Positions 3,322 to 27,849 of a stretch of 64,000 bases of DNA are shown here, in pieces. A model generated the notes under the pieces. The model made no database searches, was not told where the DNA came from, and worked only from the letters and a program-made list of their open reading frames with translations. Location: positions 69,073-133,072 of the forward strand of contig CAKPDM010000001.1 in assembly GCA_934148995.1 (NCBI GenBank), given 5' to 3'. Position 1 is the stretch's first letter, and the number at the start of each line of letters is the position of its first letter. This stretch comes from an uncultured Bacilli bacterium (lineage in GTDB: Bacteria; Bacillota_I; Bacilli_A; RF39; UBA660). The position numbers and the translations under genes are program-made.

Positions 3322-4677
3322 CTTTGCAGTAATTTTAACTTTGACTTTCTTAACTTTTGGTGTGTAAGTAAGTTTTACATCATCACCTGTTACTTTAACT
3401 TCAACTTCATGTTCACCAACGCCTAAATCTTTTAGGTCTACATAAGCTTTAATAATTGATTGATCAATATTATCAATTATTGACTTACTACCTTTAACTA
3501 CTACTGTTACTTTACTATCTGCTTCACTGGAAGCCTGTACTTTGTACTTAGATGTATCTAAGTTTTCAGTAGCAATTGATATATCTTGGAATTCTTTAAC
3601 AGTTGAATCATCAATTACCACTTTAACAGTTACCGTCTTAGTACTGATATCAGTAACTCCTGTTGGTTTCTTAAGTGTTACTGTATAATCTTTGCTCTTT
3701 TCAAGTCCAGTTACATCTACTTCTACTGGTAAAGAACTAATATTTGCTAATGCTTCTTCACTACCATAAACTGTTACATTAGTAACACTTGTACTTAAAG
3801 ACTTAATTGCTTTACCGAAAGCTAAATCTCCTTTTGGTACTATCTTTAGTGGTACTTCTTTACTTGGTGAAGTAATAACTACTTTAGCTGTTACAGTTTT
3901 AGGTACAATTTCTACATCAACTACTTTTCCGTTTGTATCATATGCAACTAATTGAACATTCTTAAGTGTCATTTCTCCAGGTTCTGGGTTAACAAAGTCA
4001 TCTACATCTACTAAAGCTTTTACTGTAGCAACTTTCTTAAGTTTCTGTTCTGCACCTTTGATAATAACTTCGCTACGATCTAGTTCTACTTTATCAATAT
4101 TTAACTTACTATCTAAATTATCTTTATGTAAGATATCATAAGTTAATGTTCTAGTAGCACTTACTTTTTCGTAAATTGTTACTGTTACAGATGATGGATC
4201 TAATCTATAATCTAATGATTTAAGTCTTTGACTATATTTTAGTGTAACTTTATGTTGACCTGGTTTTAATCCTGTAAGGTCTACTGTTACTCCTTCACTT
4301 GGTGATTGCTTTGCTAAGAAGATATGTCTTTTTTGTCCTACCAGTGTTATATCAACTGTTTTTGGTAGGCCTTCAACTACATAAGCTTCTTCATTATAAG
4401 TAGCTGTTACTGGTTGAGCATAAAGTATTTCAGCATACTGATCAATAGTAGCACTACTTTCACCATCTATTATGAAAAAGATACACAGTGCCACTAATAA
4501 ACTAATAACTATAAGTGTTTGTTTTCTTCCTAAAAATCTTTCTATACTTTTAGCATTTTTCTTTGAAAAATCAGTAACTTTTAAAATCAACTTTGTTATG
4601 GGAGTAATTAAAATACGGTCAAAGAAAGCTCCAATATGGGAAAAAATTTTTCCTATTCCTCTAAATATCTTCTTCAT
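3319..4677 (-). CDS. cdaR: CdaA regulatory protein CdaR (YbbR-like repeats), membrane anchored
   Basis: 452 aa; N-terminal TM, repeated beta-rich YbbR-like modules (VTV.., KV.., TGDDVKL); overlaps cdaA by 17 bp as in cdaA-cdaR operons. Confidence 0.7.
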   Translation of the reverse strand: MKKIFRGIGKIFSHIGAFFDRILITPITKLILKVTDFSKKNAKSIERFLGRKQTLIVISLLVALCIFFIIDGESSATIDQYAEILYAQPVTATYNEEAYVVEGLPKTVDITLVGQKRHIFLAKQSPSEGVTVDLTGLKPGQHKVTLKYSQRLKSLDYRLDPSSVTVTIYEKVSATRTLTYDILHKDNLDSKLNIDKVELDRSEVIIKGAEQKLKKVATVKALVDVDDFVNPEPGEMTLKNVQLVAYDTNGKVVDVEIVPKTVTAKVVITSPSKEVPLKIVPKGDLAFGKAIKSLSTSVTNVTVYGSEEALANISSLPVEVDVTGLEKSKDYTVTLKKPTGVTDISTKTVTVKVVIDDSTVKEFQDISIATENLDTSKYKVQASSEADSKVTVVVKGSKSIIDNIDQSIIKAYVDLKDLGVGEHEVEVKVTGDDVKLTYTPKVKKVKVKITAK

Positions 4678-15096: not shown

Positions 15097-15534
15097 TTAT
15101 AAGTATTCTTTTAGTTTATCCACAGTTCGTTGTTGAAATTTTAAAAAGTCTTCGGCTAATTTCTTATCTTCCTTGTTTGCTTCTTTAGTAAAGTCTTTGA
15201 TTTTCTTTTCCATTTCAATAGAACCCATTGATACACCTTTAATTAACATATCAGCTATAGCAGAATCGCTATTATCTTTCTTTACTTCCTTACTAATTCC
15301 CATAGTGGACATCATCTTTGCAATAAGTCCTTCCTCTGCTAGTTTGATATTTTCTTTTTTTAGTTGTTCCTTCGCTTTACTTTTAAATTCTTGATATTCT
15401 TTTAAAATATCTTCTGCTAAGCCTTTAATCTTATTATCTCTTTCTTTGAGTTCTTCTAATAAGTGCTCCATCGTATAACTTCCCATCGAAGCATCTTTAT
15501 ATATATGTTCTAATAATTCATTTGTTTCTTTCAT
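15097..15534 (-). CDS. Hypothetical small charged coiled-coil protein
   Basis: 145 aa, K/E-rich, no TM; co-directional with CotF-like genes. Confidence 0.35.
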   Translation of the reverse strand: MKETNELLEHIYKDASMGSYTMEHLLEELKERDNKIKGLAEDILKEYQEFKSKAKEQLKKENIKLAEEGLIAKMMSTMGISKEVKKDNSDSAIADMLIKGVSMGSIEMEKKIKDFTKEANKEDKKLAEDFLKFQQRTVDKLKEYL

Positions 15535-15536
15535 AA

Positions 15537-15869
15537 TTATTCTCCTTCTATTTTTTCTTGTTCTTCTAATAATGTCTGATACTTTTCTGTGACTTTTATC
15601 TCTCCTGCTTCTTCTAATTTATAAAAACCACATCTAAACATAACTTCAAATGTTTCTCTTTGTAGATTTAACAACTTATCATACATTTCTTTATATTTAC
15701 TAAACAATTCTTCATTACTCACTTCTGTTAAAGCTACTGTATAATCTTTAACCATAGCTTTTAGAGTTGTTAATAAGTCACTTATATAATCTTTATCATT
15801 TAGTTCTATTCCTTCTTCCACTTCTATCATAGTATTAGATATTTCTTTATTCATGACTTCCTCCTTCAT
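15537..15869 (-). CDS. Spore coat protein F (Coat_F domain)-like
   Basis: 110 aa; DKDYISDLLTTLKAMVKDYTVALTE...LQRETFEVMFRCGFY closely resembles the CotF/YraD family signature. Confidence 0.5.
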   Translation of the reverse strand: MKEEVMNKEISNTMIEVEEGIELNDKDYISDLLTTLKAMVKDYTVALTEVSNEELFSKYKEMYDKLLNLQRETFEVMFRCGFYKLEEAGEIKVTEKYQTLLEEQEKIEGE

Positions 15870-16077
15870 TTAGAATATCTAGTATGATATTCATATTTTC
15901 TTTAAAAGTATCTCCTGCTTTTTCTATTGTTTCTTCTATTTCTAGATTATTTATCATATCAATTGAATTAATCATTTTTTTATAAGCTAGATAATTCCAA
16001 TTAAACATATCTTCTAAATAATCTAAATCTTTTGTAGAAATAATAGTTGGTACTTTTTCATAATTCATTTTTATCAC
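15847..16077 (-). CDS. CotF-like small protein (partial-length Coat_F domain)
   Basis: 76 aa; STKDLDYLEDMFNWNYLAYKKMINS... similar to first half of Coat_F domain. Confidence 0.35.
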   Translation of the reverse strand: MIKMNYEKVPTIISTKDLDYLEDMFNWNYLAYKKMINSIDMINNLEIEETIEKAGDTFKENMNIILDILNEGGSHE

Positions 16078-16111
16078 CTTCCACTATTATTATTGATAAA
16101 GTTTTTATTTT

Positions 16112-16146
16112 TATACAAAAAATATCAGTTGTAAGCAACTGATACT
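16112..16146 (-). terminator. Rho-independent terminator after PPKTG-ending gene
   Basis: minus strand ATCAGTTGCTTACAACTGAT then ATTTTTTGT. Confidence 0.5.
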
Positions 16147-17206
16147 AAACACCTGTCTTAGGTGGAATTATTTCATCACTTGGTTCTTCATCTACATTAA
16201 TAATTTCTATTTCTTTTGGTTGTTCTTTTGTTAATTGAAATTCAATATAAGCACTAAATTCATAGTTCATATAAGCATTTGTAGTATATGGTCCGTTTAT
16301 ATAGAAGTTCATTGTTGTTAAACTATTTTCACTTGATGGATTAATTGTTCCTAAATCTTTTGTAAAGTAATCATTACCTAATTCTCTATTTCGCATGTAA
16401 CTTCCAATTGCTGATAAATTACTTGTTTTATAATCATATTTTTCATCACCAAACAAGACACTAAATAATACATTGTACCAATAGTCGTAACCAAGTTCAG
16501 CCACTTCTAAATTACTTTCTTTGATAGGATAGTTATTTCCATTAAATAGTTCACTCACTACGTTTGCTGGTAAATCTTCTAGGTTAGTACACTTTAGATT
16601 ATATTTATTATTATAGAAATCTAAATAATATTTGTTTAATTCTTCTATTCCTTTGTAACCATTTTGTTGTAATTGATTTCCTAATGCTTCATCTGTTAAC
16701 ATATCTTTCTTGATACTTTTCTGATATAGAGCTCTTAATGCTGAATTTGCTGTTCTATTTGGTCCAAAAGTTCCAGCTATTACTTGTCCATCAAAGCCTT
16801 TACTATTTTCTAATTTTTCTTCATAATTACTAATATCCATCGTTGATAAGATAAAGCTTTTATCTTTATATAAATATTTATTATTTGATTTATTTATTAT
16901 TTGAATATTAACTTTAATTCCATCTCCTGGAACATAACCATCACTTTCACTAATTGCTTTAAAGATAGTTGGTACTATATTTATAGTATCTTCATTATAA
17001 TCTTCTGGTATTGTATAAGTTGCAGTTACCGAATCAATAACTCTTCTTGATATATGTACATCTATATTTTCCACAATTCCTGTGGATAAAACTTTTTCTG
17101 TCTCTTTTGTTGTTTGATATTTACTTAAGTTTTTTGCAGATACTGGCATACTACTTATCAGTAACATTAATGTTACCAAACTCATAAAAAATAATTTTTT
17201 TATCAT
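16145..17206 (-). CDS. Secreted protein with signal peptide whose extreme C-terminus is PPKTGV (sortase-B-type motif without membrane anchor)
   Basis: 353 aa; MIKKLFFMSLVTLMLLISSMPVSAKN signal; ends ...EEPSDEIIPPKTGV-stop; overlaps sortase B gene by 4 bp. Confidence 0.5.
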   Translation of the reverse strand: MIKKLFFMSLVTLMLLISSMPVSAKNLSKYQTTKETEKVLSTGIVENIDVHISRRVIDSVTATYTIPEDYNEDTINIVPTIFKAISESDGYVPGDGIKVNIQIINKSNNKYLYKDKSFILSTMDISNYEEKLENSKGFDGQVIAGTFGPNRTANSALRALYQKSIKKDMLTDEALGNQLQQNGYKGIEELNKYYLDFYNNKYNLKCTNLEDLPANVVSELFNGNNYPIKESNLEVAELGYDYWYNVLFSVLFGDEKYDYKTSNLSAIGSYMRNRELGNDYFTKDLGTINPSSENSLTTMNFYINGPYTTNAYMNYEFSAYIEFQLTKEQPKEIEIINVDEEPSDEIIPPKTGV

Positions 17207-17883
17207 ATTTTCTCCTTTAATTTTGCCCCAATCACAAGATACTGTCCATCCTCATCTTGGGAACAAGTTTGTAGTATTAATATTTTATTTGTTTCATCTA
17301 TATTTATACCTGTATCATATATAGATTTTTTCTTTAATTCTTCTAAGTGACTTTTAAATTTTTCATCACTAAATGCCAATCTTGTGTAAAAATAATCTTC
17401 TTTCAAGAGCATAACTGTAAATATTTGATAAATTTCTTTTTTATCTGGATAAGTTAATTCTATATTAGGATGATTTGTTAGAAATGATTGTTTTTTATAT
17501 CCTAGTAATTTTGTAAACGGAATATCTACAGTTGAAGAACTATGTCCATAAATAATTATTTTCCTTGTATTGTTAAGGTCTATTCGATAATCAACAAATA
17601 AGCTTCCACCAATAAATTTTTCTTTTTTATTATTATGATTCATATAAAATTCATTATCAGTTGTTTGCATTACTTTTTCATTTTGAATTAAATCATTTAT
17701 TGATAATGTTAGTTTTTCATCTTTATTTTTCTCTTCTTCCTTAACTGTGGCAGTGGTATTTATATCTGTAGCTTGGACATTAGTGGATTGTTTCTCCACT
17801 TGAGGAGTTTCTTTAACTCTATCAGGAATCATAATTATTAATAGACATATTATTATACTGACAACTGCTACTTTTTTTCTCAT
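17203..17883 (-). CDS. srtB: Class B sortase
   Basis: 226 aa; N-terminal TM anchor, IIIYGHSS (His), TKL, and LILQTC active-site Cys context typical of SrtB. Confidence 0.7.
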   Translation of the reverse strand: MRKKVAVVSIIICLLIIMIPDRVKETPQVEKQSTNVQATDINTTATVKEEEKNKDEKLTLSINDLIQNEKVMQTTDNEFYMNHNNKKEKFIGGSLFVDYRIDLNNTRKIIIYGHSSSTVDIPFTKLLGYKKQSFLTNHPNIELTYPDKKEIYQIFTVMLLKEDYFYTRLAFSDEKFKSHLEELKKKSIYDTGINIDETNKILILQTCSQDEDGQYLVIGAKLKEKI

Positions 17884-17935
17884 CTTCCCTCCTTTTTTCT
17901 AATATAACAGTTCAGATGAGAAAGTTTTGTCGAAA

Positions 17936-17968
17936 GAAAAAAATCAGTCTAACAAAGACTAATTTTTA
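17936..17968 (-). terminator. Terminator after Tmk-like gene (hairpin AGTCT-AACAA-AGACT + T-run, overlaps stop)
   Basis: seen directly. Confidence 0.45.
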
Positions 17969-18627
17969 TTTATTAACTCATATATTTCGTTATGTATAGC
18001 ATTTATATCTTTCATTTTACCATTTTCACTACATTCTATTATATTCCAAGATAGATACTTTGCTACAAATAGAGAATTATCATAAACTTTTTTCATATAT
18101 TCAATATTTCTTTCATGAATATCGTTTATTATTCCCTCATTATCTGGCCTTTCTTTTCTTAATTTATTAACTATTTCAAATGGAGCTGTTAGAAAAATAA
18201 CTATGTCTGGTTTTTTCATACCTAGTTTATTATATTCATAATCACTAACATAATCGATAAATTTTTTCTTTTCCTCAACATTTTCGATAAGTGCCGACTG
18301 ATATATCAAACTTGAGGTTGTATATCTATCTAGGAGTAATATGTTTCCAGATTCATAATCTTTTTTAAGACTAGTGTGCCAAGTAATTGCTCTATCACTA
18401 GCATATAGATTATTTATAAAATATGGTGAAAGTTCATTAAGGTTACCATAACTACCTTTTAAATATTCTTCCACACTTTTCCCATGATATACATCATAAC
18501 TTGGGAAATGATGCATTGTTACTTTTTTATTATCATCTAGCAAATGCTGATAAAGTAACTCATATTGTGTTGTTTTTCCTATACCGTCGCACGCACCTTC
18601 AATAACTATTATCTTTTTATTATTCAT
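17959..18627 (-). CDS. Thymidylate kinase-family (dNMP/deoxynucleoside kinase) protein
   Basis: 222 aa; P-loop VIEGACDGIGKTTQ (Tmk ..EG.DG.GKTTQ signature), DRYTTSSLIYQ (Tmk DR(Y/H) motif), lid region with R/K. Confidence 0.6.
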   Translation of the reverse strand: MNNKKIIVIEGACDGIGKTTQYELLYQHLLDDNKKVTMHHFPSYDVYHGKSVEEYLKGSYGNLNELSPYFINNLYASDRAITWHTSLKKDYESGNILLLDRYTTSSLIYQSALIENVEEKKKFIDYVSDYEYNKLGMKKPDIVIFLTAPFEIVNKLRKERPDNEGIINDIHERNIEYMKKVYDNSLFVAKYLSWNIIECSENGKMKDINAIHNEIYELINKN

Positions 18628-18638
18628 TCTATCTCCTT

Positions 18639-19835
18639 TTATTTTTTTAATATTTTTCTTATTGTAAGAAATTCTTGTGGATACTCTTCTAATCTTCCAC
18701 GATTTTCATTAATTATGATAGGAGGAACAAAGTCAATATACCAGCCATTTTTCAAGTATTCACTAAATTCATGCTCATAGTTAACACGGCTAGTGGTAAT
18801 TGTTTTTTTCTTTTGACTTGATATTTTATGAAATCCACAAACTCTTACTAATAAATCACTCATATCTAGTTTTTTAATAAAATTCAAATCTTTATTATAA
18901 TTTGTTGATTTTAGTTTTAATTCTTCAAAAAATTCATAAAAACAAGCATGTGCGTCATAAATACCAGCTATTAGATTTACTAATCTTTTATCATAGCTCT
19001 TTCCATCATAGTAGCTTGTAAAATGATAAATCAAATTAACACAATCTTGAAACTCTGAGTCAGTTATAAAACCGTTTTTAGTTACATTAGAAATGTTATT
19101 GAGATAGTATTTAGAATTTGACAAATTCTTTAAATTATTATCCATTTCTTCATAATAAGCATATTTTAAATTGGAACCTTTGTGACCGTTTTCTCCCATA
19201 GAATTATACAATCCACCCGAAGGTGTTATATACCACGAATCAGGTAGATTAAATTTTATTTTACTTGATCTTTTGGGAATAATAAGATCATATTCATTTA
19301 ATTTCTTTATTGCTGAATCTATTTCTTTTCCTATTTCTGGTGCTAATTTTCCTTGAAATGTTGCTACCGTTTTCAAAGATTCTAAATACTCCTTCAATTC
19401 ATTTTTACTTTTCATATTTAGATTAGAATCAAACAAGTATATGTTTATTATTGAGGTAATATATAAATTTATATGCTCATAATATTCAGATGTTCCTTTT
19501 TCATATTTAAACTTGGCCATCAAAAGAGCAAATTTACGTTTAAAATTATCATTTTTTGCAAGTATATCATCTGATAAATAGTCATAAATATCGCTATAGA
19601 TTTCTGCATAACAGTCAAGAACTTGTAAAAAGTCATCATTATCATATTTTGAAGGCAATAAATCATTTAGTAAAACATCCAGATCAGCTAGTTTGCAAAA
19701 AAGTTTATAGTACGTTTTATAAAATTCTATTGGTACCTGATTGGCTTTAATACTAAGATCCATCATTCGTAACGGTTCTACCAAATCTAAATACTGCTGC
19801 TTTTTTTCTTCTAATTCTTTATAATATTTAATCAT
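18639..19835 (-). CDS. Hypothetical protein of unknown function, co-operonic with Tmk-like kinase, adjacent to tmRNA
   Basis: 398 aa, Y/N/K-rich, no TM, no recognisable motif by eye; 11-bp gap to downstream kinase gene. Confidence 0.45.
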   Translation of the reverse strand: MIKYYKELEEKKQQYLDLVEPLRMMDLSIKANQVPIEFYKTYYKLFCKLADLDVLLNDLLPSKYDNDDFLQVLDCYAEIYSDIYDYLSDDILAKNDNFKRKFALLMAKFKYEKGTSEYYEHINLYITSIINIYLFDSNLNMKSKNELKEYLESLKTVATFQGKLAPEIGKEIDSAIKKLNEYDLIIPKRSSKIKFNLPDSWYITPSGGLYNSMGENGHKGSNLKYAYYEEMDNNLKNLSNSKYYLNNISNVTKNGFITDSEFQDCVNLIYHFTSYYDGKSYDKRLVNLIAGIYDAHACFYEFFEELKLKSTNYNKDLNFIKKLDMSDLLVRVCGFHKISSQKKKTITTSRVNYEHEFSEYLKNGWYIDFVPPIIINENRGRLEEYPQEFLTIRKILKK

Positions 19836-19924
19836 ATGATTCCAACTTTCTTGTAATATATGTGTTAATTTTTCATAGTCAGTTATTTATATTCTAACAT
19901 AATAATCATATCATATGTAAATAT

Positions 19925-19958
19925 ATACAAAATAAAACTCGAAACTAGAAAATCGAGC
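19925..19958 (-). terminator. tmRNA terminator
   Basis: minus strand CTCGATTTTCTAGTTTCGAG followed by TTTTATTTTG directly after tmRNA 3' CCA. Confidence 0.5.
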
Positions 19959-19970
19959 TTAATACTTATT

Positions 19971-20348
19971 TGGTGGAGATGAGGGGTATCGAACCCCTGT
20001 CCAAAAATAGAGCTACATAAACTTCTACAAGTTTAGATTGTTTATTAAATTCAAATTATAGTAAAGAAACAATCAACCAAACTACGATTCTAGTCTTATA
20101 CTATTCAGCTATTTACTAAGACGATAAATAACTATATCTTACTAAAATAAACCGTACAATCTTAACGTAAGAAATTAAGAAAGACAGCGTACAAGCCTAT
20201 TCTTAGGCAAATGCTAAACTAGTGTTTCCACCAAAGTTTGCAAGTACATTTTTAATTTTGTTTCCAGTTATTCTGGTTTAATCTGTAACGTAGATAATTC
20301 GACTTGCTATCTATGCTCTACTATTCCTGTCGAATCCAAGACATCCCC
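19971..20348 (-). ncRNA. ssrA: tmRNA (SsrA)
   Basis: 5' GGGGATGTCTTGGATTCGACAGG... and 3' ...GGACAGGGGTTCGATACCCCTCATCTCCACCA; acceptor stem with G3:U70; internal tag reading frame; smpB immediately upstream. Confidence 0.9.
20203..20241 (-). other. tmRNA tag-peptide reading frame: (A)NFGGNTSLAFA-stop
   Basis: GCA AAC TTT GGT GGA AAC ACT AGT TTA GCA TTT GCC TAA; resume codon assignment inferred. Confidence 0.45.
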
Positions 20349-20390
20349 AAGTAAGATTATTGTACCATAATCTACTATAAAAGTCTATTA
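20349..20390 (-). promoter_or_regulatory. Candidate ssrA promoter (-35 TAGACT, 17-nt spacer, extended -10 TGGTACAAT)
   Basis: minus-strand hexamers at 20382-20387 and 20359-20367, ~10 nt upstream of mature 5' end. Confidence 0.35.
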
Positions 20391-20834
20391 CTGATACTTT
20401 ATTTGTTTAGCTATATCCCTATTAATATCACGTTCTTTAATAGTTTCTCTCTTATCGTAATTTTTCTTACCACGACAAACACCAAGTTCTACTTTAGCTC
20501 TTCCTCTTACAAAATATATTTTTAATGGTATTAATGTATAGCCTTCTTGTTCCACTTTCGCAGCTAATTTCTTAATCTGTTTTTTATGAAGTAATAACTT
20601 TCTACTTCTTGTCTCTTCGTGATTAAATAAATTACCTTCTTCATATGGTGCAATATACATATTAACTAGAAAAACTTCATCATTTTTAATTCTGGCATAA
20701 CAGTCTTTTAGATTAGCACTACCTTTTCTAATTGATTTTATTTCTGTTCCTTTAAGAACAATTCCACACTCTAATGCTTCATCAATAAAGTAGTCATGTC
20801 TTGCTTTTCTATTTAGTATTTCCACATTTATCAC
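20388..20834 (-). CDS. smpB: SsrA-binding protein SmpB
   Basis: 148 aa; ...[10 protein letters not shown]...GTEIKSIR... typical SmpB; directly precedes tmRNA. Confidence 0.9.
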
Positions 20835-20836
20835 CT

Positions 20837-22000
20837 CTATATATCTTTCATTTTTACCTTATCCGTCTTTGATAAAACAACATTTTTATAAGTATTATAG
20901 TACTCTTTGTATCCTGGTAAAATATCATCATTTAATTCACTATATGGATAAACTAAGAAATTTCTTTTTCGTGGATAAGCAGCAGAATAAGTATAAATGA
21001 GTTCTGCTTCTGGATTTTCAAGACTGATAGTAGTATTATCTTTTTCCACAGTTTTGTGAATATTTACATTTACCATTAATCCAGTCAATCGTTCCACTCC
21101 TATCTGATCAGAAATAAAATTTCCCAGTGAGTATATTACCATTGTTTTTCCAATAAATTCAATTGGTTCTACCACATGAGGATGACTTCCTATGATAATA
21201 TCAACACCAAGATTTGATAAATAGTTGGCTATTTCCACTTGAGAATCACTTATTCCTTTGGAATACTCAGTACCCCAGTGCATTGCTACTATTATAACAT
21301 CAACTTCATCTTTTACTCTTTCAATATCATTTTTAGCTAGTTCTTCACTATAAACATTATTTAAATATTCTTTACCAGTAGGTGTTTCTAAGCCATTTGT
21401 CCAAGTAGTATAGGAAAAGAAAGCATATTTAATTCCATTTATTTCTTTAACTACTTTTTTATCTCTATCTTCAAAAGAGGTATAACTCCCAGCTGTTAGA
21501 ACACTTGACTGCTTACTCCAGTAAGATAGGGAATTTAATACACCTTGTTCACCTTTATCCATTGTATGATTAGTAGCAAGAGAAACTAAGTTAAAACCAG
21601 AATCAATGAAAGCATCTCCAACTTCATAAGGAGAATTAAATCTTGGATAGTTTGATAGACCTAATTCTACTCCACCTAAAACTGTTTCTTGATTGTAATA
21701 TTCTAAATCATACTTACTAACAATTGGTTTTATCTTTTCTAGCATAGGTTTAAAATCATAACTACCATCAGTTGTTTTAGCATCCATATAAATAGTACTA
21801 TGGATAAGAGCATCTCCCACCATAAAAAGTGAAGCTGACATTTCTTTTTTAATATCTTCCTTTTCTTCTTGTGATGGTTTAGCCGGTTCTACTAGTTTTG
21901 GCTTTTGTTTGGCTTTAAAACAAAGGAAAGCAGCAAAGAAAAAGATTAAAATTAATAATACTAATACTAAAGCTTGTTTCTTTTTTCGTTTACTGCTCAT
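20837..22000 (-). CDS. CapA/PGA_cap family metallophosphatase-like protein, membrane anchored
   Basis: 387 aa; N-terminal TM; MVGDALIH..., [25 protein letters not shown] motifs of CapA family. Confidence 0.7.
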
Positions 22001-22010
22001 ATATAATCAC

Positions 22011-24104
22011 CTAAATCTTTTTAACGATTTTGAAATCTATAGTTTTTGCTTGTTTATTAGCTGCTACTACTTTAATTCTTACTTTTTCACCAATTGTATA
22101 ACGTATATTTGTTCTTTCACCAGTTAAAGTCATTCTCTCTTCATCATAAACAAAATAATCATCTAATAATCTAAGAGGTACTAGACCTTCTATTAAATTA
22201 TCTAGTTGAACAAACATACCAAAGCTCATAACAGAAGAAATCATTCCATCATATTCTTCACCAATATGACTTTCCATATATTCAGCCATCTTCATATCTT
22301 CCACTTCACGTTCACAATCAATAGAGGCACGTTCCATTGCAGAAGAATGATCTGCTACAAATATTAACTTTTCTTCCCAATGATGAAGTGTTTGAGGAGA
22401 CATATCATGATTAAATAAGTAAGTTCTTAATAATCTATGAACAGTTGTATCTGGATATCTTCTAATTGGAGACGTAAAGTGGGTATAACAAGGACTAGCT
22501 AAACCATAATGTCCTAAATTCTGTGGTAAATAAATAGCTTTTTGCATACTTCTTAATAATAAGCTCGATAGAATAGGAAATTCTTTTTTATCTTTTAAAC
22601 TATTCAAAATATGTTGAACAGTAGTTGGTTTATTATCTTTGATATTTCCAGTAATATGATAGCCAAGATTACTGACAAAAGCCAAGAAACTTTGAATTCT
22701 TTCTTGTTTAGGATACTCATGTACACGATAGATAAATGGTAAATTCATATAGAAAATATGGCTTGCAACACATTCATTAGCAGCAATCATAAAGTCTTCT
22801 ATTAAATTTTCACCAAGACCTCTTTCTCTTAATACAACGTCAGTTGGTTTACAGTTTTCATCTACTAATATTTTAGGTTCATCAACATCAAAGTCAATAT
22901 AACCACGTTTGGTCTTTGCTTTTCTCAAAATTTGTGCCAACGCTTCCATTGTTCTTAAATCATCAGCAAACTCTTCATATCCTTCTGGAACAATATTTTT
23001 TTCTATTATGCTATTAACCTTTTTATAAGTCATTTGCTTCCTTGATTTAATAACGCTTTCAAAGATATCATAATCAACTAATTTTCCTTGATTATCATAC
23101 TCCATAACACAGCTTATTGCTAAACGGTCGACATTAGGATTTAAAGAACAAATACCATTTGATAACTCATGCGGTAACATTGGAATTACTCTATCTACAA
23201 GATAAACTGATGTTCCCCTATCCATTGCTTCTTTATCAAGTGGACTTCCTTCTTTAACATAGTATGAAACATCTGCTATATGAACACCTAATACATAATT
23301 ACCATTTTCTTTTTTATCTATACTAACAGCATCATCAATATCTCTTGTATCATCACCATCAATAGTAAAAATTACTTTATCACGTAAATCTCTTCTTCCC
23401 TTCATATCAGCTTCTGATACTTCCATTGGTAAAGTTTTTACTTCTTCTACCACATCTTCTGGAAAACTACTATTTATATGATATTTTTCCACAATAGATA
23501 AAATATCAACACCTGGATCATTTTTATGTCCAATAATTCTTAAAACTTTACCTTCTGCTTGATGATTACTAATTCTTTTAATTATTTCTACTACTACTTT
23601 ATGTCCATCTACAGCATTTAAAGAATTTTCTTTACTTATTAATATTTCTAGATTAACTTTATCTTCATCTAATTTTACTTTTCCAACATTTTTATAAAAG
23701 TTAATTTCTCCAACAAAAGTATTAGTTTCGTGCTTTAATACTCTAATTATTCTACCTTCTAGACGGCCTAAATCTTTTTTAGAAGTTAATTCTACAATTA
23801 CATAATCACCATGAATAGCTCCATTCATATTATCAGCACTAATATAAACATCCTCAGTTAATGAATCAACATCTACAAAACCAAAACCTTTTTTATTTGA
23901 GTGTAAATATCCTTTTAATAAGTGACTATCTTCGAATAACATATATTTATCTTTATTAGTATGATAAATACTTGTTTCTATTTCCATCTCATTTAAAATA
24001 GATAATAATTCTTCTAAGTTACTAGTACCTAGTTCTTCTTCTAATTCAAAGACTGTTAAACTTTTTCCTTTTTCTTTTAATATCTTTAGTATTCTTTCTT
24101 TCAT
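22011..24104 (-). CDS. rnr: Ribonuclease R (RNB family 3'-5' exoribonuclease with S1 domain)
   Basis: 697 aa; cold-shock/OB N-term, RNB catalytic core (..DIDDAVS.., ..RVIPMLP..), C-terminal S1; follows smpB as is common. Confidence 0.85.
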   Translation of the reverse strand: MKERILKILKEKGKSLTVFELEEELGTSNLEELLSILNEMEIETSIYHTNKDKYMLFEDSHLLKGYLHSNKKGFGFVDVDSLTEDVYISADNMNGAIHGDYVIVELTSKKDLGRLEGRIIRVLKHETNTFVGEINFYKNVGKVKLDEDKVNLEILISKENSLNAVDGHKVVVEIIKRISNHQAEGKVLRIIGHKNDPGVDILSIVEKYHINSSFPEDVVEEVKTLPMEVSEADMKGRRDLRDKVIFTIDGDDTRDIDDAVSIDKKENGNYVLGVHIADVSYYVKEGSPLDKEAMDRGTSVYLVDRVIPMLPHELSNGICSLNPNVDRLAISCVMEYDNQGKLVDYDIFESVIKSRKQMTYKKVNSIIEKNIVPEGYEEFADDLRTMEALAQILRKAKTKRGYIDFDVDEPKILVDENCKPTDVVLRERGLGENLIEDFMIAANECVASHIFYMNLPFIYRVHEYPKQERIQSFLAFVSNLGYHITGNIKDNKPTTVQHILNSLKDKKEFPILSSLLLRSMQKAIYLPQNLGHYGLASPCYTHFTSPIRRYPDTTVHRLLRTYLFNHDMSPQTLHHWEEKLIFVADHSSAMERASIDCEREVEDMKMAEYMESHIGEEYDGMISSVMSFGMFVQLDNLIEGLVPLRLLDDYFVYDEERMTLTGERTNIRYTIGEKVRIKVVAANKQAKTIDFKIVKKI

Positions 24105-24154: not shown

Positions 24155-26113
24155 TTATTTTTGAGTATCAACTTTCATTTCAAATAGAATATTTCTTAAT
24201 TCCATTGCACGTTCAAAGTCTAATTCTTTAGCAGCTTTCATCATTTCTGTTTCTATTCTTTCGATTTCGTTTAATCTTTCTTGTTTAGTTAATTTCTTAG
24301 TTTTTTTCTTGCTAGCTTTATCTACATTACTTACTACTTCTCTTATTTCTTTAACGATAGTTTTAGGAGTTATATTATGTTCTTTATTATACTTATCTTG
24401 AATAGTTCTTCTTCTTGCTGTCTCATCAATGGCTTTTTGCATACTATCCGTTATTTTATCAGCATACATAATAACGTGACCATCTTTATTTCTAGCACAA
24501 CGACCTATCGTTTGAATTAAGCTTCGCTCGCTTCGTAAAAATCCTTCTTTATCTGCATCCAAGATAGCTATTAATGACACCTCTGGTATATCAATTCCTT
24601 CTCTTAAAAGGTTTATTCCAACAACTACATCATATTTACCAATTCTTAAGTCATGAATAATTTGTAAACGCTCTAAAGTTTTAATTTCCGTATGTAAATA
24701 AGCTACCTTAATATCAACATCTTTTAAATAATTAGTAAGTTCTTCTGCCATTCTAATTGTTAAAGTTGTAATTAAAACTCTTTCATTTTTTTCTTTTCTG
24801 ATTCTTATTTCTTCTATTAAGTTATCAATTTGTCCTTCAGAGCCTCTTACTTCGATAGTAGGGTCAAGTAAACCTGTTGGTCTAATAATTTGTTCAACAT
24901 ACTCACCATCTGTTTTTAGAAGTTCATAATCTCCTGGTGTTGCTGATACGTAGATTGCTTGATTTATCTTCTTTTCAAACTCTTCATATTTTAATGGTCT
25001 ATTATCTAAGGCACTCGGAAGCCTAAAACCATAATCGACAAGATTCATCTTTCTAGCCCTGTCACCATTATACATTCCTCTTACTTGAGGTAAAGTAACA
25101 TGTGATTCATCTACAATTAGTAAATAATCATCATTAAAGAAGTCCATTAACGTGGTTGGAGTTTCTCCTCTTTCTCTACCAGCCATTGGGGCAGAATAGT
25201 TTTCTATTCCGTGACAGAAACCAGTCTCCTCAAGCATTTCCAAATCATAATTTGTTCTTTGTTCTAATCTTTCTGCTGCTAATAATTTATTTTCCTTCTT
25301 TAGTTCCTCTAATCGTTCTTTTAACTCACTTTTTATTCTTTTAATAGCAGCTTTTAATTTTTCATCACTTACTACAAAGTGACTAGCGGGAAAGATACTT
25401 ATTGTCTTTTTATTAGTAACAATTGCTCCTGTTAAAACGTCTATTTCACTTATTCTATCTATTTCACTACCAAAAAACTCAATTCTATAACCAGTTTTAT
25501 CTTGGTTAACTGGTATTATTTCCACTATGTCACCTCTTACTCTAAAAGTTCCACGATGAAAGTCAAAATCATTTCTTTCAAATTGCATTTCTACTAGTTT
25601 AGCAAGAACTTTATCTCTTTCAATTTCATCACCTATACTAAGAGTTAACATTTTATTTTGATATTCTTCTACTTCTCCAATACCGTATATACAAGATACT
25701 GATGCTACAACTATAGTATCTTTATAAGTTAAAAGTGAAGATGTAGCTTCGTGACGCAATTCATCTATTTCATCATTTATGGATGAATCTTTTTCAATAT
25801 AAGTATCAGTACTAGGAACATATGCTTCAGGTTGATAATAATCATAATAAGATACAAAATAACAAACATGATTATTAGGAAATAATTCCTTCATCTCAGC
25901 ATATAACTGACCTGCTAATGTCTTATTATGTGCAAGTATTAAAGTTTGTTTATTGGTTCTTTGAATAACATTTGCCATAGTAAAAGTTTTACCTGTTCCT
26001 GTAGCACCTAGTAATACCTGTTCTTTTACTCCAGATTCTATTCCTTTGACTAATTTTTCTATCGCTTGTGGTTGATCTCCACTTGGTTTAAATTTTGATA
26101 CTAATTCAAACAT
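24155..26113 (-). CDS. uvrB: Excinuclease ABC subunit B
   Basis: 652 aa; [25 protein letters not shown].. [10 protein letters not shown] helicase motifs, C-terminal UvrB/UvrC interaction motif ...[12 protein letters not shown].. Confidence 0.9.
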
Positions 26114-26138
26114 ATCTTGTCCTCCTTATTATGACTCA

Positions 26139-26172
26139 TATCAATCAGAAAATTCGTGTCCAACTACCAAAA
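26139..26172. repeat. Two direct copies of AAAATTCGTGTCC (left repeat of GT2 cassette)
   Basis: 26139-26151 and 26160-26172; inverted partners at 27447-27468. Confidence 0.5.
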
Positions 26173-26349
26173 ATTCGTGTCCTAGAGCCGATTAAATAGG
26201 TCAAAATTTTGGTGGATAGTGATGGTCACACGTCTCGGCTACAAATTTATTAAATGTAAATGAATAATTAATTTTTTCAATAGATTATTTTAACATTATT
26301 TTAATAATAAAACAATGAAGCTACTTTAATGCCTATCATTTTTGTCAAA

Positions 26350-27381
26350 TTATCTGAAGGACCTTTTTATATTACTTTCTGCTGTTTCTCTATCAACATT
26401 TCTATACTCATCATTTGTATATTTATCAAGTCTATTCATATCAAAATTAAATAAGAAATTATTAGATCTATATTGTTTAACAATTTGATTTTCTTGCCAA
26501 TTTTGATACTTAGCATCTAAAATTCCTAGCAAAGAACTTACTACTATTTCTTTTTTCTTATGTGGAAAATTAACCCAAAGCATAGTATTTTCAACTCTAA
26601 ATAAAGTATGTAAAATGTATAAGCTTTCAATTTGATTTTTATATTCCTCTGACAAACCTCTTAATTTCATTTGTTTTTCTACATTTTCCAAACATTTAAT
26701 TATATCTAGAATATTAGGAATTTTGTTAATAAAATCTTTTATAGTTGTATTCATATTAACTCTATAATTATAAACAGGTTCATCCATATGAAATAATTTT
26801 TCAGAACTTGCTACAATAACAGGTATAATTGCTAGATCTTCCCATTTTGTTTTTTCTGGAAATCTTAAATCACCTATTAAATCACGACTTATCAATTTAT
26901 TTCCTATTCCAGGAGTTTCTGTTACTATATAATCTTTAATTTTTCTTACATCTATAACTTTGCTACCTTGTACATCACTCCAACTACATTTATCCTCTGC
27001 TCTAATTGGTCCTATTATAGTTTGATAATTTCCCCTAACTAATTTAACATTATGTTCTTTAGCAATGTTATACATTTTTTCTAAAATGTCTGTTTTTAGA
27101 TAATCATCTGCATCAACAAATTTAATAAACTCTCCATTTGCATTTTCTATTCCAATATTTCTAGCAGACCCTGCCCCACCATTTTCTTTATCAAAAATTT
27201 TTAACGTACCTTTATATTTTTGTGATAATTCATCTAATATATTTAAACTATCATCAGTTGAACCATCATTAATTACAAGTATTTCAATATCCTTCATAGT
27301 TTGATTAGCTATACTTGAAATACATCGTTCTAAATACCTTTCTGCATTATAAACTGGAATAATAACACTAACTTTTCTCAT
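26350..27381 (-). CDS. Family 2 glycosyltransferase
   Basis: 343 aa; MRKVSVIIPVYNAERYLERCISSI...INDGSTDDS...VDADD typical GT2. Confidence 0.75.
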   Translation of the reverse strand: MRKVSVIIPVYNAERYLERCISSIANQTMKDIEILVINDGSTDDSLNILDELSQKYKGTLKIFDKENGGAGSARNIGIENANGEFIKFVDADDYLKTDILEKMYNIAKEHNVKLVRGNYQTIIGPIRAEDKCSWSDVQGSKVIDVRKIKDYIVTETPGIGNKLISRDLIGDLRFPEKTKWEDLAIIPVIVASSEKLFHMDEPVYNYRVNMNTTIKDFINKIPNILDIIKCLENVEKQMKLRGLSEEYKNQIESLYILHTLFRVENTMLWVNFPHKKKEIVVSSLLGILDAKYQNWQENQIVKQYRSNNFLFNFDMNRLDKYTNDEYRNVDRETAESNIKRSFR

Positions 27382-27446
27382 CTAATTTATCCTCCTATTT
27401 TTATATTTTTACTCAAAATAACCACAATTTCAAATCAATTTTTTAA

Positions 27447-27468
27447 GACACGAATGGATACGAATTTT
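27447..27468. repeat. Inverted copies of the cassette repeat (GACACGAAT / GGATACGAATTTT)
   Basis: reverse complement of AAAATTCGTGTCC motif seen left of the GT2 gene. Confidence 0.45.
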
Positions 27469-27571
27469 GGTCACAAATTTACATTTCGTTATATATTTTT
27501 ATTTAGTCTTTTTATAGTATTTTTGAGGGATTGAATAAACCTAAAAAATGTTGAAATAAAAGTTTTTTAGG

Positions 27572-27744
27572 TTGGTTCTCTGGATAACATTTGCCATAGT
27601 AAAAGTTTTACCTGTTCCTGTAGCACCTAGTAATACCTGCTCTTTTACCCTAGATTCTATTCCTTTAACTAATTTTTCTATCGCTTGTGGTTGATCTCCA
27701 CTGGTTTAAATTTTGATACTTATTCAAACATATCTTTCCTCCTC
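27572..27744 (-). pseudogene. Degenerate duplicate of uvrB 5' end (RBS + first ~53 codons), inactivated
   Basis: ~173 bp aligning to 25953-26125 with ~8 substitutions and 2 indels; copy reads ATG TTT GAA TAA (L4 to stop) and is frameshifted downstream. Confidence 0.75.
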
Positions 27745-27849
27745 ATCTTTATTATAAACAGTTAATATATATTTTTCCCCATTTCTTATGAATTATCTAT
27801 ATTATAATTATCAAATATACGTTCGTCAATAGTTTTTTTGCAAAAAGAA

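Follow-up and report, generated by a model that had tools for sequence, protein, structure and literature searches.

A core thymidylate kinase gene and a probably independent accessory orphan gene downstream of the tmRNA gene in an uncultured Bacilli bacterium

The stretch of DNA analysed here, called the window, comprises 64,000 nucleotides (nt) of contig CAKPDM010000001.1 from an uncultured Bacilli bacterium (assembly GCA_934148995.1, positions 69,073 to 133,072). The gene for transfer-messenger RNA (tmRNA; ssrA) is followed there by an open reading frame (ORF) of 398 amino acids (aa), which we call U398, and by a 222-aa ORF of the thymidylate kinase family, tmk. An earlier interpretation made from the letters alone, the sequence-only reading, had taken the two ORFs for one inserted accessory module with a plausible role in nucleotide targeting. 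The comparison with related genomes leads us to regard the stretch as probably a composite of two unrelated things, a core tmk and an independent accessory gene, U398, located between ssrA and tmk.

The features of the locus all lie on the minus strand. The tmRNA gene occupies 19971-20348 and was recognized by ARAGORN and by Rfam (RF00023, 144 bits); position 19971, which had entered the sequence-only reading as an end coordinate, is the exact 3' end of the tmRNA. ssrA is likely followed by a weak intrinsic terminator, a hairpin with a U-run at 19928-19960 (folding energy -9.5 kcal/mol, z -3.0). An AT-rich spacer with a ribosome-binding site (19836-19927) precedes U398, and within the region between ssrA and U398 we infer at most a promoter-like site (19882-19855; 9 of 12 positions match, not above shuffled sequence). 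U398 spans 18639-19835 and tmk 17959-18627; the gap between them measures 11 nt and contains a ribosome-binding site but no terminator. A second hairpin with a U-run lies over the stop codon of tmk (17930-17965; -8.8 kcal/mol, z -2.3) and is again a likely weak terminator. Thus both ORFs, their quoted motifs and the tmRNA gene are where they had been described. The two terminators that had been proposed appeared as hairpins with U-runs on folding, but a consensus terminator scan returned none at the locus, both hairpins being too AT-rich for it. GC content is ~26% and flat over the locus, so there is no compositional signal of an island.

The relation between the two genes was examined in the fetched genome loci carrying homologues, called L001-L069, which were compared with the window. 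Within the genus the order of tmk, a sortase-like gene, a 353-aa gene, a 73-aa gene and a CotF gene was constant. L066 shows the order ssrA-[658 aa]-[149 aa]-argS-tmk-srtB-353aa-CotF without U398, whereas L068, whose flanks are ~95% identical to those of L066, shows ssrA-argS-U398-tmk. The two differ by a clean indel of 1239 nt in place of 22 nt of spacer, bounded 11 nt past the argS stop and 11 nt ahead of the tmk start. Therefore the kinase can do without U398; U398 is accessory and the kinase is a core gene, fixed beside the block of the sortase-like, 353-aa and CotF genes. The view of an accessory pair is correct for U398 but not for the kinase, which stays in L066 without U398, and the synteny of the kinase with the same block in this genome contradicts the insertion of the pair as one module.

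Strains of the same species as the window demonstrated that the U398 region is also exchanged on a finer scale. In L003 and L014 UvrB, RNase R, SmpB, SrtB and the 353-aa protein were 98-100% identical in amino acids to those of the window, while U398 was 50-52% and Tmk 81-84% identical. Nucleotide homology to other strains ended at 19968 or 19951, i.e. at the tmRNA 3' end, and returned to at least 90% only near 18100, within the last quarter of tmk. The strain-variable allele block (18100-19968) thus takes in the spacer, all of U398 and the first ~520 nt of tmk, as defined by sliding identity against L003, L012, L013 and L014 and by a fine alignment of the tmk 3' end. It was 47-83% identical in nucleotides per 100-nt bin, the gap-rich spacer excluded, against strains that match the window at 98-100% in the flanks. 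Between ssrA and U398 the window has no gene, L003 a 201-aa gene in reverse orientation, L012 the 201-aa gene plus a NUDIX gene, and L013 and L014 the NUDIX gene only. The NUDIX protein matches the PADLOC defence candidate PDC-S07 (3e-13). The proposed hot spot after ssrA was thereby borne out: homology breaks at the tmRNA 3' end, and strains carry nothing, the reverse 201-aa gene, the NUDIX gene or the pair of 658 and 149 aa. The site is a recombination hot spot, being bounded by highly conserved sequence.

U398 is exchanged between strains as an allele block of ~1.9 kb. The simplest mechanism, which we infer, would be homologous recombination, with the highly conserved tmRNA gene as one anchor and the conserved 3' end of tmk as the other. 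Pfam and NCBIfam detected no recombinase domain in U398, the kinase or the next genes. Co-transcription of U398 and tmk would be a by-product of landing between upstream promoters and tmk without a terminator, and would not imply functional coupling. The last ~130 nt of tmk (17962-18100 in the window and the same part in L003, L012, L013, L014, L066 and L068) are nearly identical in nucleotides between two species, and the rest of the gene differs by ~20-25% between these species. Strong codon bias acting on a conserved peptide may simply account for this near-identity; alternatively, the segment could anchor recombination or regulate the sortase operon downstream.

The kinase carries the motifs VIEGACDGIGKTTQ and DRYTTSSLIYQ and matches the Pfam family Thymidylate_kin (PF02223) at residues 9-201 with 79.6 bits against a gathering cut-off of 27 and an E value of 3e-22. 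The closest solved relative is the thymidylate kinase (TMPK) of M. tuberculosis (Mtb; PDB 1g3u, 8e-12, residues 6-180, ~30% identical), and the protein is accordingly listed as an Mtb-type dTMP kinase. The Mtb residues D9 and K13 of the P-loop, F36, P37, Y39, D73, R74, D94-R95-Y96, Y103, R153, D163 and E166 were kept in at least 119 of 120 homologues; we take them to be those that bind thymine, phosphate and Mg2+ in the Mtb structure. F70 was replaced by Y in 120 of 120 homologues, and R14, R38, R149 and R160 were replaced in the alignment. With over 2500 clusters at an identity of ~60% or higher, the kinase family is far larger and better conserved than the U398 family with its 59 close homologues.

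Across genera the context of tmk varies, yet it is always a single tightly packed gene, found after an ABC/FtsX gene in L061, a Flg_new gene in L063 and a YjbR gene in L069. The 377-aa gene after tmk in L069 was considered as a U398 relative and is not related. In L064 and L065 the start of tmk abuts the stop codon of a 400-aa ThyX homologue (Thy1, 5e-15), a kinase gene whose product is 66% identical to that of the window being translationally coupled to thyX; such a thyX-tmk pair is what a genuine kinase of the dTTP pathway would show. The ThyX homologue itself (L064 1692-2894; L065 1204-2406) is unusually long, with the Thy1 domain at residues 26-178, an RHR motif near 265 and then a Cys-rich tail of ~120 aa. 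The 64-kb window contains no holB, and neither the window nor 1 Mb of fetched related loci showed a second Tmk homologue, although both together make a test of low power. A tmk beside holB is a habit of Bacillus and E. coli; the expectation that a housekeeping tmk belongs with holB therefore does not hold as a rule. Searches for defence systems gave no support either, with weak generic P-loop matches of the kinase in PADLOC-DB 2.0 (PDC-M51B 4e-5, VakA 4e-4) and no match for U398 or five homologues, and a literature search on thymidylate kinases in defence systems returned nothing directly relevant. Taken together, the kinase looks like the ordinary thymidylate kinase of the lineage, converting dTMP to dTDP for dTTP synthesis.

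Among the genes around the locus, smpB (20388-20834), a PGA_cap gene (20837-22000) and rnr (22011-24104) lie upstream of ssrA, all on the minus strand. Downstream of tmk the block at 15097-17883, on the same strand and kept across the genus, starts with a gene resembling class B sortases, which scored under the NCBIfam cut-off. The 353-aa protein of this block has a signal-peptide-like N-terminus and no family match; the small ORFs include one with a CotF spore-coat domain.

Searches of U398 against Pfam, NCBIfam, PADLOC and PHROGs returned nothing significant. A word-indexed search yielded a family of 59 proteins, and an exhaustive profile search of 1.84 billion representatives yielded 289 clusters. 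Every one of the 49 U398 loci in the species-level genome collection came from a metagenome-assembled genome (MAG), with labels such as uncultured Bacilli, Tenericutes or Erysipelotrichaceae; all carriers are uncultured low-GC gut Bacilli. The alignment falls into three regions, a conserved N-terminus (MIKYFKELE), a hypervariable helical middle and a conserved C-terminal domain, with mean identities to the U398 of the window of 56% (residues 1-20), 21% (21-185) and 46% (186-398). The C-terminal alpha/beta domain (186-398) is marked by the motifs LPxxWYITPxGxLYNxxGxxGHK and LVRCCGFHKISS...KTITTS.INYE.EF.EYI..GW.IDF.PPII. Conserved acidic residues are few. Although the model of this domain is a confident prediction, Foldseek gave no fold match in PDB or BFVD (E > 0.1). 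The description of the 398-aa protein as uncharacterised thus stands after both profile and structure searches, with neither a family nor a fold relative.

Several candidate identities of U398 were tried and rejected. A divergent ThyX was considered because the 400-aa ThyX of L064 is equally long and likewise precedes tmk; hhalign gave a probability of 2%, BLASTP an E value of 0.22, and there was no Thy1 match. The WYI...LYN motif superficially resembles GIY...YIG, but hhalign against I-TevI and UvrC domains gave less than 1%. A tyrosine recombinase found no Pfam match, a Cre fold probability of at most 0.11 and no HxxR...Y pattern. Pfam likewise detected no homing endonuclease or recombinase domain (GIY-YIG, HNH, LAGLIDADG or PD-(D/E)xK; tyrosine or serine recombinase), and cap-snatching and PD-(D/E)xK nucleases matched at a Foldseek probability of at most 0.1. 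The HEPN-like Rx4H motif (R331-H336) runs from the end of a helix into a beta-strand, and its histidine is N or S in distant members (by eye). A DUF3298 match was treated as noise: it occurred in 11 of 41 members, in a subfamily of 377 aa only, its 17-19 bits fell short of the cut-off (24), and it extends over no more than one helix and a hairpin. Domain fusions gave no clue, the longer relatives (500-712 aa) having insertions or unannotated tails by eye.

The U398 loci were grouped into ~37 distinct contexts. In ~9 of these U398 starts 100-600 nt after a co-oriented tmRNA or tRNA (Leu, Arg, Thr, Ala) gene, and in several further ones one to three genes intervene between the tRNA and U398; a tRNA just upstream of a random gene would be expected in ~2% of cases by a rough estimate that was not computed. 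At 10 loci U398 lies directly upstream of uvrB. The gene is mostly solitary, with spacers of 150-700 nt, and no partner gene recurs in the family. Tightly coupled neighbours occur in single lineages and comprise Tmk, a divergent Gmk-like kinase, a NUDIX protein, a cation-efflux gene, MutL, a radical-SAM protein and several without a Pfam match; outside the genus of the window no family member has a Tmk neighbour. Split copies were seen in L029, L045 and L059, a tandem pair in L033 and two paralogues in one MAG (L018, L022). The Gmk-family gene (L007 9295-9897; also in L008 and L016) lies 52 nt downstream of a U398 homologue. Its product matches guanylate kinases over the first ~75 residues only, which hold the P-loop and the beginning of the GMP site, and diverges thereafter. 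Housekeeping gmk often adjoins rpoZ; the gene of L007 does not.

Downstream of tRNA genes the family can be seen within small elements. In L038 a direct repeat of 70 nt (96% identical), made of the last 34 nt of tRNA-Arg and its terminator, brackets a 1.6-kb segment with U398 as its only large ORF. Inside this element, on the opposite strand (3690-3790, minus), a strong ribosome-binding site precedes a very hydrophobic peptide of 25 codons, MTKKDFLIFALIIIILLLILLLFK, as seen by eye; the peptide could be a candidate stabiliser of the type I toxin kind. In two different MAGs a repeat of ~130 nt stands between successive genes downstream of tRNA-Arg and tRNA-Leu (L046 8255-14430; L051 296-2060). 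It is composed of the last 7-12 nt of the tRNA (..GCACCA), the terminator hairpin, a TGnTATAAT promoter and the palindrome TTGTCAAT...ATTGACAA, and separates single-gene units, which include U398 and a peptide deformylase paralogue.

A second kind of site is the 5' end of uvrB. In L009, L027, L028, L031 and L053 U398 is flanked by truncated copies of uvrB (codons 1-90/91). Seven copies, drawn from five MAGs, share the exact nucleotide at which the uvrB homology breaks off, at ...TCTTATTAT/AG against ...TATTAT/GATTATTATCAACC in the intact gene, where the slash marks the break; in the group of the window the break is at codon ~54, not ~90. The result is a tandem array of the form uvrB'-cargo-uvrB'-cargo-uvrB. 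Each breakpoint is followed by a conserved non-coding element of ~146 nt, which also heads cassettes with other cargo, namely an MFS transporter, a glycosyltransferase and other genes. Copies were located in the window (27430-27575, minus strand), in L009 (7778-7925 and 9661-9805) and L031 (9781-9925 and 11535-11680), and further in L028 (8771-8917), L053 (6954-7100) and L022 (9771-9916). They are 72-87% identical between genomes, the UvrB proteins of which differ by ~20-30%. As a structured RNA the element had no consensus structure (-1.4 kcal/mol, essentially no covariation). It ends in AAATTTGTGGCCGAAATTCGT, and two copies of the reverse-complement motif GGACACGAATTT immediately precede the start of the intact uvrB (window 26150-26182). 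The motifs look like putative arm sites of a recombinase. The cassette motif GGAYACGAATTT was found only at uvrB and not near the U398 of the window.

The window itself carries such a cassette of ~1.4 kb in the uvrB 5' end, with a glycosyltransferase gene (26350-27381) as cargo, in a region at 26130-27746 on the minus strand next to the intact uvrB (24155-26113). It is flanked by a duplicated stretch of uvrB, 191 nt long and running from -15 to +176, at 27556-27746 and 25939-26129; of the two copies the upstream one has decayed to a fragment in which residues 11-54 are detectable. In L003, whose flanks are ~96-98% identical, the cassette is missing and uvrB has only one 5' end. The shared breakpoint and the tandem arrays suggest that integration at the uvrB 5' end is site-specific; a search of the literature on uvrB as an integration site returned nothing directly relevant. 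The scanned cassette genes and the precomputed Pfam matches for L009 revealed no integrase, and because no recombinase gene was recognised inside the cassettes the cassette recombinase probably acts in trans. The U398 family would travel in small cassettes of two kinds, some lodged downstream of tRNA genes and bearing att-like direct repeats, others inserted at one fixed nucleotide within the uvrB 5' end.

With regard to the function of U398, a conflict-type role fits best the combination of cassette and hot-spot location, presence or absence between near-identical genomes, allele divergence within a species and a hypervariable middle. We tentatively favour such a protein, serving phage defence or something similar, although the chance of this being correct is below even. 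The hypervariable helical middle would recognise a changing target, and the conserved N-terminal segment together with the C-terminal alpha/beta domain would act as a constant effector or scaffold. A wider proposal is somewhat more doubtful still: U398 might found a new-fold class of cassette-borne conflict proteins, be it a single-gene defence factor or a mobility enzyme, spread among uncultured low-GC gut Bacilli by an as yet unrecognised system of cassette integration that docks at the 3' ends of tRNA and tmRNA genes and at a fixed point in the uvrB 5' end, supplying a replacement 5' end of its target.

A number of results weigh against this picture of a core kinase beside a conflict-type gene. 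It is only from location and variability that the conflict role is drawn. U398 has no defence, nuclease or recombinase signature and was absent from the viral contigs, GenBank phages and plasmids searched. H218 and H336 are replaced in distant members, which weakens an enzymatic reading. At the locus itself, neither an att repeat nor any further copy of the ssrA 3' end was found downstream in the window or in L001, L003, L013 and L014. The kinase missed the NCBIfam equivalog cut-offs (TIGR00041, 71.1 against 83.25; NF005923, 88.8 against 193); by these scores it belongs to a divergent subfamily, so that automatic naming as tmk would fail, and it could still be a second paralogue in the genome. 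Furthermore, U398 abuts genes of the NMP-kinase family in two lineages (Tmk here, the Gmk-like gene in L007), the NUDIX gene in L012-14 and a Ham1 ITPase gene in L010, and this leaves room for a nucleotide link.

Of the other explanations, that of a lineage-specific cellular protein survives best, although we consider it unlikely. U398 would then be a regulator or an RNA- or DNA-associated factor, with its position reflecting co-expression and its divergence relaxed constraint. U398 is indeed almost always co-oriented with its neighbours and its placement is stable in some genera, as in L039-L042, where it follows tRNA-Leu and overlaps a cation-efflux gene by 7 nt; there is also no anomaly of composition and no toxin, defence or mobile-element signature. 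Yet a cellular protein would hardly be present or absent between genomes of ~95% identity or have alleles of ~50% identity within a species between flanks of 98-100%. The two paralogues in one MAG (L018, L022), the tandem pair of L033, the att-like repeats around the L038 copy and the patchy distribution and small size of the family point in the same direction.

Slightly less probable is that U398 is the mobility enzyme of a minimal selfish element, a new site-specific recombinase or homing-type nuclease acting on conserved genes (tRNA, tmRNA, uvrB and tmk), which could also mobilise the cargo-only cassettes in trans. In L038 it is the sole large gene between the att-like repeats, and in L009 and L031 nothing but U398 lies between a pair of uvrB 5' fragments; no integrase was recognised in the scanned cassette genes or the L009 Pfam matches, and U398 always adjoins highly conserved genes. 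The clean ORF-sized indel and the co-divergent tmk flank resemble free-standing homing genes, and split or decayed copies (L029, L045, L059) are in keeping with this. On the other hand, cassettes with the same junction carry cargo only, so being the sole gene is not special to U398. Neither a recombinase nor a nuclease family or fold emerged (Pfam none, Cre at most 0.11, GIY-YIG below 1% by hhalign), conserved acidic residues are few and the conserved histidines vary in distant members. Moreover, U398 was stable in L039-L042 while other genes were inserted between it and the tRNA.

The coupled two-gene accessory nucleotide system of the sequence-only reading (depletion, modification or salvage, with the kinase acting on a substrate made or released by U398) is very improbable: the 11-nt gap without a terminator, the U398-tmk pairing in two species of the genus, the Gmk-like kinase 52 nt downstream of a U398 homologue in another lineage, the NUDIX and Ham1 neighbours elsewhere and the missed dTMP kinase cut-offs speak for it, but L066 has the kinase at the same place without U398, no partner gene recurs and no Tmk neighbour exists in U398 contexts outside the genus, ~3 nucleotide-enzyme neighbours in ~70 slots are at chance level (a rough estimate, not computed), the kinase family is ~40 times the size of that of U398 and is coupled to thyX in a relative, and the thymine- and phosphate-binding residues of the kinase are intact.

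The composite of a core tmk and an accessory U398 makes the locus more ordinary than had been proposed. The kinase appears to be a housekeeping enzyme whose subtype annotation pipelines under-call, and this matters for the metabolic reconstruction of uncultured small-genome gut Bacilli. The U398 family remains interesting for its confident yet unmatched structure, hypervariable middle, strain swapping and integration hot spots. Together with the precise cassette arrays at the uvrB 5' end it points to an unstudied shuffling of single accessory genes. If U398 were a defence factor or a recombinase, it would add a class of proteins not known before, coming from microbiome members that lack a cultured model. 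We regard the orphan gene and the surrounding cassette system as moderately interesting leads.

Finally, we compared the locus with known systems. With Mtb-type TMPK (1g3u; NF005923) the kinase shares the FP.Y motif, the DRY motif and a LID with D-x-x-E, but its host is a low-GC Bacillota-like bacterium and not an actinobacterium. Integron arrays consist mostly of single promoter-poor or self-contained genes with a recurring recombination-site-like repeat and a recombinase provided in trans. The U398 and uvrB units are similar in being mostly single genes separated by repeats with a recombinase presumably in trans, and we do not claim membership; unlike integrons they have no IntI and no attC-like folded site, and their repeats are the ends of host genes (uvrB 5', tRNA 3'). 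The vcr islands of Dehalococcoides at the ssrA 3' end (PMC3146451) resemble the window in having variable content that starts at the 3' end of a single-copy tmRNA gene and differs between close strains. In contrast to these islands (PMC3146451), the site in the window lacks an integrase, a repeat of the ssrA 3' end and a compositional shift, and its variable unit is one or two genes with the far boundary inside the core gene tmk. Cis-mobilizable elements (CIMEs) in Firmicutes are small and integrase-less, have attL/attR-like repeats and accrete one behind the other where a conserved target gene ends (PMC5704250). No parent integrative and conjugative or integrative and mobilizable element (ICE/IME) or cognate integrase was identified for the U398 and uvrB units. 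The att-flanked U398 of L038 and the uvrB arrays of L009 and L031 are like CIMEs (PMC5704250), but the units measure 1.4-1.9 kb and contain a single gene, the target in uvrB is the 5' end, and the element brings along a replacement 5' end and a junction element of ~150 nt.

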